Notes under the pieces: generated by a model
Told to the model about the DNA's origin: nothing
Database searches by the model: none
The model's input: the letters and a program-made list of their open reading frames with translations, nothing else
In this document: positions 1 to 5,863 of the stretch, one piece after another
Layout of the letters: each line of letters starts with the position of its first letter
Numbering within the stretch: the stretch's first letter is position 1
Virus record (IMG/VR): IMGVR_UViG_3300018486_000129
Location: 1-5,863 of that record
Reading direction: 5' to 3' (one strand)
Length of the DNA stretch: 5,863 nt
From: a virus
Taxonomy: Duplodnaviria; Heunggongvirae; Uroviricota; Caudoviricetes
Translations under genes and position numbers: made by a program

Positions 1-158
1 ACAATCTCATTCAGGCACTCTTTGGCTGCCTCATCGTGACTTTTTCCGTATGCTTCATGGAGGACTTTCATCCTCATCATTGCTCCGTCACACATAATCG
101 AAAGCGCGTAAAGCACATCACTAATCGCCATTTCTTTTTTGGTGCTTGTCGAAGGCAT
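1..158 (-). CDS. Hypothetical protein, 5' part only (runs off the left edge of the window)
   Basis: Minus-strand frame open from ATG at 158..156 to position 1 (MPSTSTKKEMAISDVLYALSIMCDGAMMRMKVLHEAYGKSHDEAAKECLNEI...). GGAG at 170..167 lies 8 nt upstream of the ATG. Below the ORF-track length cut-off because it is truncated. Confidence 0.3.
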   Translation of the reverse strand, partial: MPSTSTKKEMAISDVLYALSIMCDGAMMRMKVLHEAYGKSHDEAAKECLNEI

Positions 159-183
159 CCCATGTTCTCCTTTGTCTGGATGT

Positions 184-209
184 AAAAAAGCCCCGGCAAT
201 TGCCGAGGC
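184..209 (-). terminator. Rho-independent terminator ending the 89-aa/66-aa operon
   Basis: Minus-strand RNA GCCUCGGC-AAUU-GCCGGGGC followed by UUUUUU (plus-strand A-run 184..189). 8-bp GC-rich stem with one U.G wobble that would be a C.A mismatch on the plus strand. Sits 24 nt downstream of the stop at 233. Confidence 0.55.
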
Positions 210-232
210 TCGTTGTTCGTTATCGTTACGGT

Positions 233-433
233 TTAATGCTCGCGTCGTCCGGCGACAACTTCGGATTTGTATTTCAGGTCGCCCAGCAAGAATTGCAGTT
301 TAAGCATCTTTGCCGCCGTGTAGTTTCCTGATTCCACAACCTCTTTCATGAGGTCATAAACGGCCGCAACATCATCAGCCAGGAACTCTTTGCGTTGCTG
401 CTCAGTCGCACGTTTGAAGGAAATACGCATCAC
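233..433 (-). CDS. Hypothetical small protein (65-66 aa), second gene of a coupled pair
   Basis: ORF-track frame 233..433. AGGAG at 445..441 precedes GTG 433 (7-nt spacer) and ATG 430 (10-nt spacer). The ATG overlaps the upstream TGA stop as TGATG. No family recognised. Confidence 0.5.
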   Translation of the reverse strand: MMRISFKRATEQQRKEFLADDVAAVYDLMKEVVESGNYTAAKMLKLQFLLGDLKYKSEVVAGRREH

Positions 434-699
434 TCATCATCTCCTGCCGCACATACAACCTCACAAAAAACATCAGCGGAATGTTTCTTTTTGAATGAAT
501 GGCGCTCAAAACCGCACTCAATATCAGGCGCAAAAACATCCACCACATACGGTCTTTCAGAATGTTTGTTTTCCCAACGATAAACCGTAGTGACGTTGAA
601 ATGTTTTAACGCTTCACGGAACTCAACGCTGCCCGTCAGGTTTTTTGAGGTCAGGTATTGCAGGAGGTTTTTTACTACTTCACGGTCTTGTACTTTCAT
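430..699 (-). CDS. Hypothetical protein (89 aa), first gene of a coupled pair
   Basis: ORF 430..699 with GGAG about 8 nt upstream of ATG 699. Stop overlaps the start of the 66-aa gene. No family recognised. Confidence 0.5.
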   Translation of the reverse strand: MKVQDREVVKNLLQYLTSKNLTGSVEFREALKHFNVTTVYRWENKHSERPYVVDVFAPDIECGFERHSFKKKHSADVFCEVVCAAGDDE

Positions 700-749
700 C
701 GGGTTATCTCCGGTTTAACCAGGGCGGGTATCGCTCGGTTTCGGGTATA

Positions 750-778
750 ACCATAGGAAATTTTTTCCCACCTGTAAA
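750..778 (-). promoter_or_regulatory. Candidate sigma70 promoter for the 89-aa/66-aa operon
   Basis: Minus strand reads TTTACA (778..773), 17-nt spacer, TATGGT (755..750), about 45 nt upstream of ATG 699, inside an AT-rich intergenic stretch. Hexamer match by eye only. Confidence 0.3.
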
Positions 779-794
779 GCACTTTTTATATAAA

Positions 795-808
795 TATATA
801 ATTATATA
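795..808. repeat. Perfect 14-bp AT-only palindrome TATATAATTATATA
   Basis: Read directly; it is its own reverse complement. Lies just after the methyltransferase stop and 16 bp upstream of the candidate -35. A related 12-bp copy is at 1930..1941. Confidence 0.6.
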
Positions 809-811
809 ATT

Positions 812-1399
812 CTATGCCACTTGCCAGAGAGCATCATGCAACTGGATACCTCCATTGCACTGGTTGCCCCAGCCATGCCAACCATCAGGTAAATCACCGC
901 GAGCAAACAGCTCAATACGAGGAACATCACCTAACAGCCTTACCAGCTTGTCACGAACCACATCAGGCTTCCGAGAATGCTCCAGACGAGGCGATGTAAA
1001 CGACTGAATGATCCCCGCATCAAGGCGGGTCGGCAATTTGCCTTTTACCGCAAACAAGCAATCTTCACTGTTTGCACGAGTCATATGCCCCATCCCCATC
1101 ACCAGCTTATCTGGTTGTCGGCTACCACATTTGTTCCATGTGAAGCCCTTCATGGTCATAAGCCTGAATCCCCATGCTTTCACCACCAGCAACGCTTCTT
1201 CTGGCTGAGTCGGAACCCACCACATGGCCAACAAACACGATTCAGGATTAGCAAGCTGCCAGACAGGAATACGAGCAATATCCTCAGCTTTCATCGTTGG
1301 ATACTTAAAACCAGCTCCACGATTCCCATCCTTACACTTATCTTTGTATTCCCAGGGGGGATCTGCATAAATCAGATTAAACAATGCAATTGCCTCCAT
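812..1399 (-). CDS. DNA N6-adenine methyltransferase, MT-A70-like (orphan, no restriction partner in window)
   Basis: 195-aa ORF with N-terminal ADPPWEY (DPPW catalytic motif of N6-adenine methyltransferases) and overall resemblance to phage Dam/MT-A70-like enzymes. GGAGG about 10 nt upstream of ATG 1399. Confidence 0.8.
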   Translation of the reverse strand: MEAIALFNLIYADPPWEYKDKCKDGNRGAGFKYPTMKAEDIARIPVWQLANPESCLLAMWWVPTQPEEALLVVKAWGFRLMTMKGFTWNKCGSRQPDKLVMGMGHMTRANSEDCLFAVKGKLPTRLDAGIIQSFTSPRLEHSRKPDVVRDKLVRLLGDVPRIELFARGDLPDGWHGWGNQCNGGIQLHDALWQVA

Positions 1400-1642
1400 G
1401 TTAGTTGTGCCTCCGGCGCTTATCTCCGGCAGTCATAACGCTGGCCAGCTCTACAGCAAACACAACGAAAAGGGCACTAACCAGACTGATTAATGCCCTT
1501 GCCTGTTGTGTGCCGGATATCGCCCGACAACGCTGTTTTGGTAACACGGCTACAGTTCCGTGCCGCTCCAGCTTTTACCCCTTTGCGGATAACAGGCCCT
1601 GCCTGTAACTTAGCCCCACGTTCGCCCGAAATGCGCACCAGG

Positions 1643-1697
1643 CACGCATAAAGATGAGCACGAAGAAGTAACTCCACCGAGCTTATCTTTATGTGTG
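1643..1697. repeat. Long inverted repeat (17-bp stem, 21-nt loop) just downstream of the tRNA
   Basis: 1643..1659 pairs with 1681..1697; core cataaagatgagc / gcttatctttatg. Two G.T positions (G.U in plus-sense RNA). No U-run on either side, so not a canonical intrinsic terminator. Confidence 0.5.
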
Positions 1698-1706
1698 AGA
1701 GTGAAT

Positions 1707-1782
1707 TGGTGGCCCCTACCGGATTTGAACCGATGACCGTGCGATTATGAGTCGCCTGCTCTAACCACTGAGCTAAGGGGCC
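1707..1782 (-). tRNA. tRNA with CAU anticodon, most like tRNA-Ile2 (lysidine, AUA-decoding)
   Basis: Minus strand reads GGCCCCTTAGCTCAGTGGTTAGAGCAGGCGACTCATAATCGCACGGTCATCGGTTCAAATCCGGTAGGGGCCACCA. 7-bp acceptor stem, D-arm GCTC/GAGC, anticodon loop CTCATAA, T-arm ATCGG/CCGGT with TTCAAAT loop, encoded CCA. Acceptor stem GGCCCCU and anticodon arm match host ileX-type tRNA as recalled from memory; elongator tRNA-Met is not excluded. Confidence 0.9.
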
Positions 1783-1808
1783 ATATTTGATTTGTTTGTC
1801 TGGTGTGG

Positions 1809-1859
1809 CGCCGCGCACGAAAATCCCAGCCAATAAATTCAGGATTTTTGGGCGCGGCG
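1809..1859. repeat. Long inverted repeat (18-bp stem, 15-nt loop) just upstream of the tRNA
   Basis: 1809..1826 pairs with 1842..1859 (cgccgcgcacgaaaatcc / ggatttttgggcgcggcg), 16 of 18 Watson-Crick plus one G.T. GC-rich base, A/T-rich top. No flanking U-run. Confidence 0.5.
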
Positions 1860-1929
1860 GCATATCAGACAAACATGGTTGATGCGTGCGCCCATGAGAA
1901 AAGCGCATAGAATGTTGTAACTATATATT

Positions 1930-1941
1930 TATATAATTATA
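1930..1941. repeat. 12-bp AT-only palindrome TATATAATTATA, second copy
   Basis: Perfect palindrome in the AT-rich gap between the Rz1 stop (1952) and the tRNA. Confidence 0.5.
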
Positions 1942-1951
1942 GAAATATATA

Positions 1952-2161
1952 TTACTTTCGGCAGTTGATTTCCCATGCCCTGTTATGAGCCAGAATATCT
2001 TTCTTTGTCTGGCGGTCCATAACATCGATGTCGTGATCAGTCAGGTAGATGGGCTTTACCCAATCACAGGCGGTATCAACCACCACCGGGACGCTTCCAC
2101 GACTCCCGCAGCTCGCGATCAACATCGTCATCAGCCATATGGTTAACACTCTGCTGTACAT
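1952..2161 (-). CDS. Rz1-like o-spanin (outer-membrane lipoprotein), overlapping the 3' end of Rz in another frame
   Basis: 69-aa ORF MYSRVLTIWLMTMLIASCGS... with a lipoprotein-type signal peptide and lipobox IASC. Strong RBS AGAGGTGGGG about 5 nt upstream of ATG 2161. Overlaps Rz by 86 nt. Not proline-rich, so the call is tentative. Confidence 0.55.
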   Translation of the reverse strand: MYSRVLTIWLMTMLIASCGSRGSVPVVVDTACDWVKPIYLTDHDIDVMDRQTKKDILAHNRAWEINCRK

Positions 2162-2354
2162 TCCCCACCTCTTTTATCACTTCTATACGCCGCTCCGCAG
2201 TGGCTTTTACGGCGGCTGCATTCTCATTAATGCGCTGCTTTTCAGCTTCATCTTCGGCCTTTTCTCGCCCCTTCATACGACCAAAACCAAACGCGCCAAA
2301 TGCAACCAATATAATTGTGCCAATAAATGACAAAACGGCCTTCAAACCAGTCAT
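2076..2354 (-). CDS. Rz-like i-spanin (N-terminal transmembrane helix plus charged coiled-coil domain)
   Basis: 92-aa ORF with hydrophobic N-terminus LKAVLSFIGTIILVAFGAFGFG followed by a charged, helix-prone region. ATG 2354 overlaps the endolysin stop as ATGA. Sits directly after the endolysin. Confidence 0.6.
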   Translation of the reverse strand: MTGLKAVLSFIGTIILVAFGAFGFGRMKGREKAEDEAEKQRINENAAAVKATAERRIEVIKEVGNVQQSVNHMADDDVDRELRESWKRPGGG

Positions 2355-2893
2355 ACCACCACTCGCTCTTTCATCCAGCCGTAGACAAACGACTCATTAG
2401 CCTCGCGCTTCTCCGCCAACTCCAGATAGCGTTCGCCCTGCGTACAGTTCAGCGACGTCAGCATCACCCGTTCGCCGTCTTTTCCCCGATTCCCAAGATA
2501 AGCACGCAGCGCATTAATGGTACGTGGACCGATTCGTCCGTCTGCATCCAAATCGGGATACAGCTTCCCACGCAGGTTGAACACATTCAGCCAGCGTTGA
2601 AGCATTTTTGACGCCACTGTTGGCCCCATGTTGACGCCCGTGTCGCACAGTTCTGCGGCAATATCCGGCGACAGAGTTGCTATCTGGTCAAAACGTGGGC
2701 CGTACCAGTAATCAGCCTCAAGGATTTCCAGAGCCTGTTCGCGAGTTAAATCGCGCATATCGCCACGGTATCCATGAGCACGGGCAGTGTTCTGAGTAAT
2801 GCCCCACTTTGTTGGGCCTCCCTTGTCGTCAGGGTGATCCACATAGCCGCCCTCTTTTCCAAGAATGCTGTTAAAAATCTCATCTTTGGTCAT
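2351..2893 (-). CDS. Endolysin, GH108-like N-terminal domain with PG_binding_3-like C-terminal domain
   Basis: 180-aa ORF. N-terminus ILGKEGGYVDHPDDKGGPTKWGIT matches the GH108 signature and the C-terminal half resembles the PG_binding_3 peptidoglycan-binding domain. No N-terminal hydrophobic SAR segment. Start overlaps the upstream gene by 14 nt. Confidence 0.85.
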   Translation of the reverse strand: MTKDEIFNSILGKEGGYVDHPDDKGGPTKWGITQNTARAHGYRGDMRDLTREQALEILEADYWYGPRFDQIATLSPDIAAELCDTGVNMGPTVASKMLQRWLNVFNLRGKLYPDLDADGRIGPRTINALRAYLGNRGKDGERVMLTSLNCTQGERYLELAEKREANESFVYGWMKERVVV

Positions 2894-3176
2894 GATTAAA
2901 CCCTAATGCGTCAACTATCCGCGCCAGATTGCCCCTGAAATACAGAACAACGATGCAGATAATCAGATTTCCAATAACCACCAGCCAGTGGGATTCTTGA
3001 TAAAGACCGAACACATAACGGAAGGGAACATTGGCGTATACAATGACGTAGATATAAGCCAGAAAGGAAACAAATGGACGATGCCTGGAGTCTTTCCGTC
3101 GATAAAGCATCAGCGCAATTACTATTACTGTGCAAAGCACCGCATTAATCAGTGCTGACGGGTCACTGCTTACCAT
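2880..3176 (-). CDS. Small three-helix membrane protein, possible second holin or antiholin
   Basis: Three hydrophobic helices in about 98 aa. Start chosen at ATG 3176 (MVSSDPSALI...) because GGAGGGGG lies 5-6 nt upstream; the ORF-track start at 3212 has no such RBS. Confidence 0.55.
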   Translation of the reverse strand: MVSSDPSALINAVLCTVIVIALMLYRRKDSRHRPFVSFLAYIYVIVYANVPFRYVFGLYQESHWLVVIGNLIICIVVLYFRGNLARIVDALGFNHDQR

Positions 3177-3558
3177 TTGAACCCCCTCCACGTAAGCGGG
3201 AAAGCATTCCAAAGATGCTACCGAGATCCTGGCTGTTTACGAACGTGAGGATTTTAATTGTCAATGCAGCCACAATAACCGCACCAAGCGCATCCAGAGG
3301 ACGATCGTTGTAGCTGGTCCATTTGGCAAGAAATGAGCCAACTAACGGCGCTCCAATCACTCCAACAATGAACGATGTAAAGAAATAGCCAATCAGCTTG
3401 AGACGGCTAATATTCACCGCTGTAGCAACATAGAAAACAGCGCCAGCAAATGCCCCGAATACAACGCCGTAATCAATACCAGTTGCAATACCAAAAACGC
3501 TGGCACCCATCAGGCCACCAGCAGCAACGGCCGTACCGGAAATTGGTTCTGCTGACAT
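3163..3558 (-). CDS. Putative holin (131 aa, about four transmembrane segments)
   Basis: Highly hydrophobic Gly/Ala-rich helices with a short charged C-terminal tail. First gene of the lysis cassette. RBS GAGGA 5 nt upstream of ATG 3558. Confidence 0.65.
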   Translation of the reverse strand: MSAEPISGTAVAAGGLMGASVFGIATGIDYGVVFGAFAGAVFYVATAVNISRLKLIGYFFTSFIVGVIGAPLVGSFLAKWTSYNDRPLDALGAVIVAALTIKILTFVNSQDLGSIFGMLSRLRGGGSNGKQ

Positions 3559-3571
3559 TGAAATCCTCGTT

Positions 3572-3604
3572 AAAAAAAAAGCCCCGCCGAAAAAGGCAGG
3601 GCTT
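3572..3604 (-). terminator. Rho-independent terminator directly upstream of the holin RBS (tR'-like)
   Basis: Minus-strand RNA AAGCCCUGCC-UUUUUC-GGCGGGGCUU followed by nine U (plus-strand A-run 3572..3580). Stem has one U.G wobble that would be a C.A mismatch on the plus strand. Confidence 0.65.
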
Positions 3605-3937
3605 CATAAAGCAACAAATTACGCGGTAATCGCTTAACGCAGTTTTACTACGTTAAATGAAACACTACACCCAGTTACCACCTAAAACAAGGCTTCCCCA
3701 TAAAAAAACCTTCATTCTGTGGTTAACTGATCAATAAAAAAACAATACTCAACTTTTTACCAACCGAACATCCCGACCAGGACTTCCATAATATTCGCCG
3801 ATATGCCACTGCTTAAGTTGAGTAATCTTCTCCAACTTAACGCCCATAGAGTCCAGTTTCTGCCATGTTTTCGGTTGTATGTGCTTCATTACCCGCTCTG
3901 AATATCTGAATACTGCTCGTAAGCGCATGGCTTCTCA
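3605..3937 (-). promoter_or_regulatory. Non-coding leader upstream of the lysis cassette; candidate late promoter and short terminated leader RNA
   Basis: About 335 bp with no ORF of 60 aa or more on the minus strand, AT-rich in places, ending in the terminator. No confident -35/-10 pair could be assigned by eye. Confidence 0.35.
3813..3840. repeat. Inverted repeat TTAAGTTG-N12-CAACTTAA in the leader
   Basis: Perfect 8-bp arms at 3813..3820 and 3833..3840 separated by 12 bp. No adjacent U-run. Confidence 0.4.
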
Positions 3938-4129
3938 CTACAGCTTATATAAGTGGTTTTTCCAGCGGTTTTGCGCCGCGCTGCGCTTATCTTTGACTCC
4001 CTCTCTGGCAATTCCAAAAAATGAGAACAACACCACACGACGATTGCTAACTCTCAACCACTGGCTGGGATAGCAAAGCCTGTATACTCGCGAAATAATC
4101 ATCCTGGCTTTACGATTGTTGGTTGCCAT
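3938..4129 (-). CDS. Small basic hypothetical protein (63 aa)
   Basis: Strong RBS AGGAG 6 nt upstream of ATG 4129, which lies 1 nt after the upstream TGA stop. Arg/Lys-rich. No family recognised; a plus-strand ORF overlaps it, so coding status is uncertain. Confidence 0.4.
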   Translation of the reverse strand: MATNNRKARMIISRVYRLCYPSQWLRVSNRRVVLFSFFGIAREGVKDKRSAAQNRWKNHLYKL

Positions 4130-4130
4130 A

Positions 4131-4802
4131 TCACTCTCCTTTTATGCGAATGCCAGCGGCGCGCTCGGCTTCACTTTGTTCCCAAAACCACTTATGAAGC
4201 TCCATGAGCTTTTCGTCAATCGGTGCATATTTGCGATTAAAGTAGGCCTGAGCATCTTTCTCAGATTCGTCCGGCAATTCGCCTGGGCCAAACAGTGTGT
4301 TATAAATCCATGCCAGTCCGCTCTTAGCGTCGCCAGTTGCCTGCCATTCGATAATCGCAGCCTGCATGACAAGAATGTTTTTCCCGATTAATAGGTCCAG
4401 TTCTTTGAACCGGTTGCGGATGTATGCATTCTCGCTTTGTAATTTTGCGTTGCGCTTCTCTGCGGCTTCCAGCTCAACACGCAGCTTCCCTACCGTTAGC
4501 GCAATATCCTCGTTCTCCTGGTCACGGCTTTTGATGTATTGCAGGTTTCTTTCCCGTTCATCCAGCAGTGCCTGCACTACTTCAGGGTTGAAAGCTGCGA
4601 TATAACGAGCGTTGTTCTCTGCGTTTTTCTGTTCGTCGAATCCAGGCCAGTCGACAATATCTCCGTGATGATTATCTCCTGGTGTGTGCACAGCGTACGT
4701 GCCGTGTTTGCCCGGCGAAATAAATGCGACCCATTCGCCCTGTGTTGCCTGTTTTGCTATCTCACGTAGCGCCTGATAGTTAATTGCTGTGCTGTTAGTC
4801 AT
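4131..4802 (-). CDS. Ead/Ea22-like family protein (about 223 aa)
   Basis: Start set at ATG 4802 (MTNSTAINYQALREIAKQATQGEWVAF...), which has GGAGG 6 nt upstream and matches the conserved Ead/Ea22-like N-terminal motif as recalled from memory. The ORF-track start at 4847 lies inside the upstream gene. Central coiled-coil-like region. Confidence 0.6.
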   Translation of the reverse strand: MTNSTAINYQALREIAKQATQGEWVAFISPGKHGTYAVHTPGDNHHGDIVDWPGFDEQKNAENNARYIAAFNPEVVQALLDERERNLQYIKSRDQENEDIALTVGKLRVELEAAEKRNAKLQSENAYIRNRFKELDLLIGKNILVMQAAIIEWQATGDAKSGLAWIYNTLFGPGELPDESEKDAQAYFNRKYAPIDEKLMELHKWFWEQSEAERAAGIRIKGE

Positions 4803-5139
4803 TCCAGGCCTCCAGCTCGTTCTGAATCTCCTCGTCAACCTCGTCATTGGTGGCGTCTTCGTTCAGATGGTCGCGCGCCTCTTTGAGATACTGTTCACGG
4901 CGTTCGTGGTACCAGGCTGAGAACTCCGGCGACCATCCTCGATTAGCCCCCTGAAAATCTACCATCGCATTATCCTCGGCCATACGCTCGACCATGCAAT
5001 CCGCGGTGTTCAGTGCAACCTCACGGATGTACCCCCGCAGGTCGCGCTTACGCCAATACGGGCTATATTTTGAGTCGCAGCGGCCTTTAAATTCGACGGT
5101 CCAGCGACGGATGCAGCGTGCGTTAAGTGATTTGCTCAT
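4795..5139 (-). CDS. Hypothetical protein (114 aa), basic Cys-containing N-terminus and acidic C-terminal tail
   Basis: RBS AGGAAG 7 nt upstream of ATG 5139. Stop overlaps the Ea22-like start by 8 nt. No family recognised. Confidence 0.55.
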   Translation of the reverse strand: MSKSLNARCIRRWTVEFKGRCDSKYSPYWRKRDLRGYIREVALNTADCMVERMAEDNAMVDFQGANRGWSPEFSAWYHERREQYLKEARDHLNEDATNDEVDEEIQNELEAWND

Positions 5140-5141
5140 AG

Positions 5142-5810
5142 TTATGCTTCCTGAATACGCTTAAACTCAATTACCCATACCCACGGGTTAGATAGCCAGT
5201 TCTCTTGCCCGTAAATACCGCGCCAGATATCACCAAAGCCAACGCGATAAACAGCTTCCGGCGGTGTAATCTTGTACGTCGCCGGAGATGCGCCTTCCGC
5301 TTTAGCATCTGCCTCGCTCATGTCATGCAGCCGTTCCACACGCACGTCGGTAATTTCCAACAGAATGCGTGATGCCCATCGCGGCATGTGAATTGATGGA
5401 CGCCACCCACCATCAAACTTTTCATTCACAGTGTGAGGTTTCCAGTCGGCATCATCGGGTATCGACCACAAGCCGTAATCACCAGGCTTTTGCTCACAAC
5501 TGGCCCGATAAATCCTTGCTGCGTTCTTCTCATCGCCACGACAAAGGTTGTCGTTCCAGTCCACACTGCAACCATCCTCATTGCCTAATATCGCCCACGC
5601 CTCGCGGACCCATATGCGATCACCAACGTTACCGAACGGGCATAAACCATGTTCCGGTGCATCCATAACGTGGGTATAGACACCATTGCGTTTCTTTGTC
5701 GGTTTACGGATAACCAGGCAGTTATCGGCCCTGACATTTTTTACAGGTCGGCGAGTCTGCGTTTTCCTTCCTTCGAGGATGGCCCGGACCATCTCATCGT
5801 TAAAAATCAT
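5142..5810 (-). CDS. ASCH-domain (PUA-like fold) protein, about 222 aa
   Basis: Start set at ATG 5810 (MIFNDEMVRAILEGRKTQTRRPV...) because the ORF-track start at 5837 is a GTG whose first codons contain the likely RBS. N-terminal GRKTQTRR...GDRIWVRE and C-terminal VWVIEFKRI resemble the ASCH signature (compare E. coli YqfB, from memory). Confidence 0.65.
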   Translation of the reverse strand: MIFNDEMVRAILEGRKTQTRRPVKNVRADNCLVIRKPTKKRNGVYTHVMDAPEHGLCPFGNVGDRIWVREAWAILGNEDGCSVDWNDNLCRGDEKNAARIYRASCEQKPGDYGLWSIPDDADWKPHTVNEKFDGGWRPSIHMPRWASRILLEITDVRVERLHDMSEADAKAEGASPATYKITPPEAVYRVGFGDIWRGIYGQENWLSNPWVWVIEFKRIQEA

Positions 5811-5863
5811 GCCGCGCTCTTTCACTCTCCCTCCCACGTTTTCAGACTTTCACCACAAAACGG

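Follow-up and report, generated by a model that had tools for sequence, protein, structure and literature searches.

A conserved structured RNA ending in an intrinsic terminator precedes the lysis genes in a family of enterobacterial phage-plasmids

The stretch of DNA analysed here (the window) covers positions 1 to 5,863 of the IMG/VR virus record IMGVR_UViG_3300018486_000129, and is 5,863 nucleotides (nt) long. It carries a phage lysis cassette (1952-3558, minus strand) and, directly upstream, a non-coding stretch of 177 nt, which is structured, ends in an intrinsic terminator, and is called the module in the following. All genes of the window reside on the minus strand, and their positions are collected in Table 1 together with those of the other features. 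The products of the cassette, which lacks a promoter of its own, fall into the PHROG holin, endolysin and Rz-like spanin families. Plasmids of E. coli of ~48 kilobases (kb) are 95-98% identical to the window, the source of which is, judged by sequence, a ~48-kb phage-plasmid of the myovirus type, one of a family to which the 48.5-kb plasmid of E. coli ATCC 25922 also belongs. Related ~48-kb plasmids encode repA, parA, an XRE repressor, a terminase, an HK97-type head and a contractile tail, and three Yersinia pestis phages are members of the same family. Membership of the family in the pSLy3/SSU5 group was rejected on typing, and the Yersinia phage HQ103 is unrelated to it. Copies of the module fall into three lineages. 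Lineage A is that of the window, lineage B includes the Salmonella plasmids L083, L084 and L087, and lineage C, the third, L089 and L103.

The terminator hairpin which closes the module has a stem of 11 pairs, 7 of them G-C, with 8 pairs, one a G.U, in a G+C-rich core. The 5' arm extends from G3605 to C3595, the loop is UUUUUC, and the 3' arm extends from G3588 to U3578; the minus strand reads GAAGCCCUGCC-UUUUUC-GGCGGGGCUUU, followed by further U residues. The free energy (dG) of the hairpin is -20 kcal/mol, nine U residues run from 3580 to 3572, and the U-rich sequence UAAUUUGUUGCUUUAUGA is found immediately upstream of the hairpin. In a consensus scan 3605-3572 was the strongest terminator-like site of the window. 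Among 300 first-order Markov sequences matched in composition, which served as random controls, not one had a run of at least seven T behind a hairpin of -17 kcal/mol or lower. In lineages B and C a terminator is found at the same place with compensatory changes: pairing is kept, C-G and U.G positions being swapped, and one CG pair being replaced by UA through a double change. A preliminary description of this DNA had proposed a minus-strand intrinsic terminator at this site, and stem stability, the nine U residues, the random controls and the two sister lineages all bear it out. Equally correct was the remark that no promoter can be accommodated between the terminator and the ribosome-binding site (RBS) of the holin gene, since only 13 nt separate the last U from the ATG. 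The junction 3556-3571 is invariant within lineage A. As there is no room for a promoter in this gap, transcription of the lysis cassette requires read-through of the terminator, as the description had concluded.

The same description regarded the region upstream of the holin gene (3556-3937) as containing a 335-bp leader. This view has to be corrected, because a large part of it (3749-3928) is a conserved gene encoding a basic protein of 59 amino acids (aa), p59. The open reading frame (ORF) matches phrog_9594 over its full length (E 8.6e-46), and proteins of this kind, 59-66 aa long, with a net charge of ~+8 and the motif FRYSER.MK.I...QLKQWH.G.YYG, are encoded immediately before the module in each of the lineages A, B and C. 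Between lineages, non-synonymous divergence (pN) is 0.25-0.31 and synonymous divergence (pS) 0.63-0.73, with dN/dS ratios of ~0.1-0.24, and the low pN relative to pS shows that p59 is a real gene under purifying selection. The gene is dispensable, since it is missing in the complete plasmid pMS21199B and in other L008-type loci, where a different gene stops at the same point. Homology starts exactly at the upstream stop codon in these two unrelated gene contexts, and the non-coding unit is therefore confined to 3572-3748. The AlphaFold model of p59 is poor (pLDDT 59.6), and a protein-based genome scan with p59 as query returned no matches.

The module folds with a minimum free energy of -61.4 kcal/mol, which corresponds to a z-score of -4.26 relative to shuffled sequences. 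According to the consensus structure, obtained with RNAalifold from 17 non-identical copies, the module consists, from 5' to 3', of stem-loop 1, an unpaired GU-rich stretch, stem-loop 2, a U-rich linker and the terminator. In stem-loop 1, both the outer stem, formed by ACCAC (3723-3719) and GUGGU (3681-3677), and the inner stem, formed by AAGGU (3712-3708) and (G)CCUU (3693-3689), are invariant, and the internal and apical loops are variable; the sites variable within lineage A are located in loops. Between lineages, UA is replaced by AU at two apical pairs (45-56 and 46-55). Stem-loop 1 lies upstream of the sole promoter candidate described below; conserved stems, varying loops and the UA to AU changes argue that this part of the module is itself transcribed. 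Stem-loop 2 includes at least 11 consecutive pairs, and is invariant in the 17 sequences, except for one change at the pair closing the loop. It contains one U.G wobble, which can pair only on the minus strand, and both here and in the terminator G.U pairs make the stems specific to that strand.

Conservation is concentrated in a block of 57 nt, 53 columns of which are identical across lineages A, B and C, in contrast to the synonymous sites of the neighbouring p59 gene, which are saturated. The block holds the unpaired GU-rich sequence GGGUGUAGUGUUUCAU and the 5' and apical part of stem-loop 2. Residues 3676-3661 are invariant; they are unpaired in the centroid fold of the window, and largely unpaired in the consensus, bar a weak 4-bp helix. 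In lineage A, two sites vary in the 3' 114 nt of the module (nucleotide diversity, pi, 0.0019), versus ~9 expected from the third positions of the holin gene (pi 0.0151), and the 5' 66 nt are variable (pi 0.09). The linker, as everything downstream of the terminator, diverges between lineages. Lineages B and C have a different holin, which starts 55 nt after the terminator; the order module, terminator, lysis genes is kept. The 3' end of the RNA resembles that of small RNAs (sRNAs) bound by Hfq, in that the tail of nine U is preceded by the U-rich sequence next to the hairpin, and equivalent U-rich stretches are found in B and C.

Copies of the module were identified in 70 of 5426 complete E. 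coli genomes, ATCC 25922 among them, in 61 PLSDB plasmids (from Escherichia, Salmonella and, in one case, Klebsiella), and in three Yersinia phages. The copy on the 48.5-kb plasmid of ATCC 25922 is 95.5% identical over 202 nt. In this set of E. coli genomes, plasmids and phages the module resides only in the ~48-kb phage-plasmid family, and its core occurs as a single copy in the replicon. Further pattern scans of viral contigs, species genomes and metagenomes retrieved the same three lineages and chance matches only. No Rfam family matched the module at its gathering score. GcvB (RF00022) was rejected; the window scored 36.3 bits, and L003 and L008 31.8-33.7 bits, against a threshold of 42, and the match depends on the terminator and linker of lineage A, no hit being left in lineages B and C, where the GU-rich core is kept and linker and terminator are different. 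A leader peptide was similarly dismissed, the mini-ORF MGKPCFRW (ATG at 3701) being not conserved in the Salmonella lineage, and inspection by eye revealed no conserved candidate for a riboswitch-like alternative pairing with a terminator arm.

The preliminary description also placed a promoter in the upstream leader. This could not be substantiated, as a consensus scan found no minus-strand sigma-70 site matching at least 9 of 12 positions between 3559 and 4300. The best conserved candidate (TTGTTT, a 17-nt spacer, TAGTGT), located within the invariant block, matches the consensus at 7 of 12 positions, and its position weight matrix (PWM) score of 7.19 is lower than both the mean best score of shuffled sequences (9.4) and the scores of the pR'-like promoters of relatives (~10-11). 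The position of the candidate does not differ between lineages A, B and C, its spacer contains all four columns that vary within the block, and its -10 region overlaps the invariant residues 3676-3661. A second -10-like hexamer, TAACGT, is found at 3655-3650, at about -1 to +5 relative to the candidate promoter. Two additional sites were considered and rejected. One (TTAAAA-17-TATTAT), at the 5' end of the module, is confined to lineage C; the other (TTAAGC-17-TATTAT), inside p59, arises from YY codons, and is missing in L008-type loci. No late-promoter or activator motif was found to be shared by the module and other intergenic regions.

Related holin genes help to place the module. Among 72 loci encoding a holin ~82% identical to that of the window, 64 have a terminator 36-52 nt before the ATG, so that this placement is the norm for this kind of holin. 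The window lineage has the shortest gap. In sampled relatives the RNA upstream of the holin gene is the prophage sRNA STnc100 (RF02076), which scored 84 bits in L061, 79 in L056 and 62 in L016, and the preceding gene is Q (PF03589, E 4e-54) in L016 and L063. The STnc100/PasD family was discarded as an identity for the module, because it has no match in the window at E <= 1 (gathering threshold 47 bits). In lambdoid relatives, a conserved element of ~45 nt, CCCCTC-N-CTGAGAGG-N-GAGGGGG, lies between terminator and holin ATG (2952-2997 in both L016 and L063, and in most of L009-L082), and is absent from the window. Two alternative pairing partners are available to CCCCUC, GAGAGG and the Shine-Dalgarno sequence GAGGGG; folding energies are no better than those of shuffled sequences. 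The element may represent a translational switch.

Terminators close to start codons are not confined to the holin gene. Four strong co-directional terminators occur in series within ~4.3 kb of the replicon, and two further strong terminators finish 16-26 nt before the next co-directional start codon (window 183-211, minus strand; L123 19965-20015 and 20659-20703). In the window, the terminator at 211-188 is followed by a Shine-Dalgarno sequence at 171-167 and an ATG near 157; in L123, the terminator at 20659-20685 precedes an ATG at 20701. As far as the sequences tell, a terminator abutting an RBS is a recurring design in the phage-plasmid. The holin terminator had been called unusually close to the first lysis gene; this holds in comparison with the lambdoid relatives (13 nt versus 36-52 nt), though not within the replicon, where two further terminators abut RBSs. 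Sigma-70-like promoters associated with AT-rich palindromes are found inside the replicon, as an example at 778-750 in the window, and argue that the gene array is not one transcription unit. On the predicted layout, several genes of the replicon are reachable only by passing a terminator.

In lambda, tR' precedes S by a few hundred nt, and in Shiga toxin (Stx) phages tRNA and stx genes intervene. The locus described here resembles the lambda pR'-qut-tR' region, known for 6S RNA and, in Stx phages, for StxS, because a terminator is interposed between upstream transcription and promoter-less lysis genes, and read-through is required. It differs because the replicon has neither a detected Q nor a constitutive promoter of consensus quality, the element is a plasmid-borne prophage of the myovirus type, and 13 nt separate the terminator from the holin ATG. 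In Stx phages, the transcript terminated at tR' (pR'-tR') is the Hfq-binding sRNA StxS (PMC7547250). The RNA of the window, like StxS, is structured, and ends in a hairpin followed by a long U tail. As a rule, the sRNAs PasA, PasC and PasD1 are found right next to a conserved holin/lysozyme operon, and PasD and STnc100 are relatives (bioRxiv 10.64898/2026.05.13.724894). The module sits in the same slot as STnc100, PasD, PasA and PasC, where an RNA with its intrinsic terminator immediately precedes a holin/lysozyme operon. In contrast, it has no sequence or covariance-model similarity to STnc100, and does not follow Q as STnc100-type sRNAs do. A different comparison is with CpxQ and SroC, Hfq-dependent sRNAs of enterobacteria derived from 3' untranslated regions (UTRs). 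As in these, the module shares the terminator of the upstream mRNA, no promoter of its own is apparent, and an AU-rich stretch after the stop codon may be an entry site for RNase E. In the module, unlike in CpxQ and SroC, the terminator would also gate a promoter-less lysis cassette downstream, and Hfq binding, processing and targets are putative.

We give an even chance to the view that the module is a terminated leader, or an sRNA-like RNA, which gates the promoter-less lysis cassette. Transcription would enter the module from the upstream accessory-gene operon, as no promoter of consensus quality is found in or near it, and most RNA polymerase would stop at 3572-3575. The terminated transcript would have the 3' end typical of Hfq-type sRNAs, where a U-rich stretch before the hairpin and a long U tail come together with a GU-rich segment that is conserved and unpaired, and may act in trans, perhaps after processing. 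Holin, endolysin and spanins would be made only by read-through, due either to a low basal leak or to a phage antitermination factor, and the terminator would be the gate keeping expression of lysis genes low or late. In functional terms, the module could be regarded as corresponding, in a phage-plasmid, to the leader sRNA plus tR' which precedes the homologous holin in lambdoid prophages, with a non-homologous RNA and no Q gene.

Some observations count against a gated leader or sRNA. No read-through factor was identified; in particular, searches for Q-type antiterminators (PF03589, PF06530-type, PHROG) were negative for the ORFs of the window and the ~40 ORFs of the complete plasmids L002 and L123. 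Covariation is thin, a double change being found in 3 of 41 predicted pairs, which is explained by the existence of only three lineages. The low diversity of the 3' part of the module in lineage A could partly reflect a recently spread block including the holin gene. A duplex scan against the translation start regions of the plasmid itself gave a best value of -21.8 kcal/mol, weaker than the mean of shuffled seeds (-24.4 kcal/mol). Finally, the weak promoter-like sequence conserved within the invariant block would explain the conservation of the block in a different way.

The latter point leads to an alternative that we hold to be unlikely, in which the locus is a late switch of the lambda type lacking a recognisable Q. 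The invariant block would then be a promoter with a start near A3654, the hexamer TAACGT (3655-3650) would be a sigma-dependent pause element, the terminated RNA would measure ~83 nt, and a phage protein loaded at the promoter would let polymerase pass this and later terminators. The constancy of hexamers and spacing in the three lineages, with variation restricted to the spacer, fits this scheme, as does the extent of conservation around A3654 (from about -37 to +19), which resembles a pR'-qut span; in addition, homologous holins in lambdoid prophages use exactly such logic, and several downstream terminators abutting RBSs would suit processive antitermination. Yet the candidate promoter was missed by the consensus scan, and its score falls short of both shuffled sequences and relatives; no Q family emerged from Pfam and PHROG scans of the replicon; and a conserved stem-loop 1 that lies upstream of, and across, the proposed -35 hexamer is hard to reconcile with a pure promoter. 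The pR'-qut-tR' logic invoked in the preliminary description is thus retained in part. Read-through is needed, and the logic is seen in the lambdoid relatives of the holin; on the other hand, no Q was found, no promoter matches at least 9 of 12 positions, and half of the supposed leader is a gene. Quite unlikely, in our opinion, is a module working as a cis antitermination RNA, similar to put or nut, which would modify polymerase, alone or with a host or phage protein, and enable it to pass this terminator and those further downstream. A structured nascent RNA upstream of terminators, with downstream genes lacking promoters, is indeed what HK022 put and lambda N/nut have in common with the module, which is conserved and placed right before the first of four strong co-directional terminators, the later of which abut RBSs with no promoter between; moreover, in each of the three lineages the gene of the small basic protein p59 keeps its place beside the module. 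In contrast to put and nut, the module is not duplicated, only one copy of the core being present in the replicon, and no essential N-like protein was found. It has no boxA-like match on the minus strand, and no RfaH ops match with up to two mismatches. Its two stem-loops do not seem to resemble the HK022 put arrangement, and p59, rejected as an N-like antiterminator in spite of charge and synteny, is absent from pMS21199B, a complete plasmid with intact module and structural genes. A constitutive antiterminator, furthermore, would make a strongly conserved terminator pointless for upstream transcripts.

It is very unlikely, in turn, that the terminator is an ordinary operon end or insulator, that the non-coding stretch is a functionless 3' UTR, and that its conservation reflects recent ancestry. 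The uniformly low diversity of lineage A from ~3685 through the holin genes, the scarcity of covariation, and the failure to find a target in the start regions of the plasmid would be expected on these grounds. They are opposed by the 53 of 57 non-coding columns which are identical in spite of saturated synonymous sites, by the flanking linker and downstream lysis genes, which are unrelated in B and C, and by the z-score of the fold. A further, rather improbable possibility is that the module is the cis loading site of an undescribed, Q-independent system of processive antitermination, based on RNA only, as put, or on an uncharacterised phage or host protein. Were this true, the system would open both this terminator and the downstream ones abutting RBSs, and would time lysis and late genes across widespread enterobacterial phage-plasmids.

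In lambdoid phages it is a classic arrangement that a terminated leader RNA precedes the lysis genes, and recent work has tied this arrangement to regulatory sRNAs such as StxS and the Pas RNAs, so the architecture by itself will not surprise specialists. What is new, on sequence grounds, is an uncatalogued RNA family residing in the pre-holin slot of a non-lambdoid phage-plasmid with no detectable Q. Strong conservation, absence of Q and presence in ATCC 25922 make the module a tractable lead. The phage-plasmid family is found in ~1.3% of complete E. coli genomes, that of this reference strain included. If the RNA is an sRNA, a regulator borne by a phage-plasmid would be added to the network of the host; if it belongs to an antitermination device, this would establish the means by which the family times lysis. 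Either reading can be directly tested in a standard laboratory strain.

Table 1. Features of the window (positions are those of the window)
Feature	Positions	Strand	Basis or remarks
ASCH-like protein	5142-5837	-	window ORF
114-aa protein	4795-5139	-	window ORF
Ead/Ea22-like protein	4131-4847	-	window ORF
63-aa protein	3938-4129	-	phrog_1380
p59, 59-aa basic protein	3749-3928	-	phrog_9594
Non-coding structured RNA module, 177 nt	3572-3748	-	from upstream stop codon to end of U-tract
Stem-loop 1	3677-3723	-	RNAalifold consensus
Weak sigma-70 candidate	3662-3690	-	TTGTTT (3690-3685), 17-nt spacer, TAGTGT (3667-3662)
Invariant 57-nt block	3636-3692	-	columns 59-115 of alignment A2
Stem-loop 2	3630-3660	-	UUUAACGUAG / CUGCGUUAA, loop UAAAA
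Intrinsic terminator	hairpin 3605-3578, U-tract 3580-3572	-	consensus scan, folding, conservation
Terminator-holin junction	3571-3556	-	AAC, Shine-Dalgarno GAGGA (3568-3564), UUUCA, ATG (3558-3556)
Holin, Phage_holin_8	3163-3558	-	Pfam, E 1.7e-37
Second holin, Phage_holin_3_7	2880-3212	-	Pfam
GH108 endolysin (Glyco_hydro_108, PG_binding_3)	2351-2893	-	Pfam
Rz-like spanin	2076-2354	-	PHROG Rz-like spanin family
Rz1-like spanin	1952-2161	-	lysis cassette ORF
tRNA, anticodon CAT	1707-1782	-	window
MT-A70 methyltransferase	812-1399	-	window ORF

Some features of the neighbouring genes deserve mention. The two holin genes overlap by 50 nt (3163-3212, minus strand) if the first start codons are taken; in relatives PGAP assigns a later start to the second holin, and the overlap is reduced to 14 nt. 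The region of the 63-aa ORF (3951-4146, minus strand) is ~92% identical at the DNA level to an unannotated stretch present in many Stx-converting phages, which is located ~5 kb into the genomes of Stx1a-, Stx2a- and Stx2c-converting phages. This identity suggests that accessory genes have been exchanged between lambdoid Stx phages and the phage-plasmid family. The tRNA with anticodon CAT is assigned to Met by ARAGORN, and to Ile by PGAP in related plasmids, a disagreement indicating that it may be a tRNA-Ile2 of the lysidine type. An inverted repeat of 34 nt, 85% complementary, precedes the tRNA (1793-1875).

Palindromes of two kinds recur in the replicon. Motifs ACCAC-N5-GTGGT and GTGGT-N6-ACCAC cluster in the region of the XRE repressor and early promoter and just before repA (L123 7554, 8305, 8397, 8408 and 47461), and probably function as repressor operators. 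The outer stem of stem-loop 1 is built from the same half-sites, which are 37 nt apart there. Local alignment of the module to the early operator region scored 42 versus 27 +/- 5 for shuffled sequences, the maximum of which was 45, a similarity which is suggestive only. AT-rich palindromic repeats (TATATAAATATATAATTATA...) follow the lysis cassette and the MT-A70 gene (window 779-830 and 1914-1965), and are found also in L123 (10793-10961, 12030-12106, 18096-18388 and 19360-19471). Behind two of the copies the same sigma-70-like promoter, TTTACA-17-TATGGT (window 778-750), is found together with a conserved leader, and repeats and promoter may constitute operator-promoter cassettes. Immediately before the start codon of the MT-A70 gene (window 1402-1457, minus strand) there is a weak match to the Rfam family rydB (26-29 bits, with a gathering score of 50). 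It is found at the same place in all three lineages (L083 6349-6412, L087 8869-8932 and L089 6932-6991), and possibly represents a conserved structured 5' leader of the gene.

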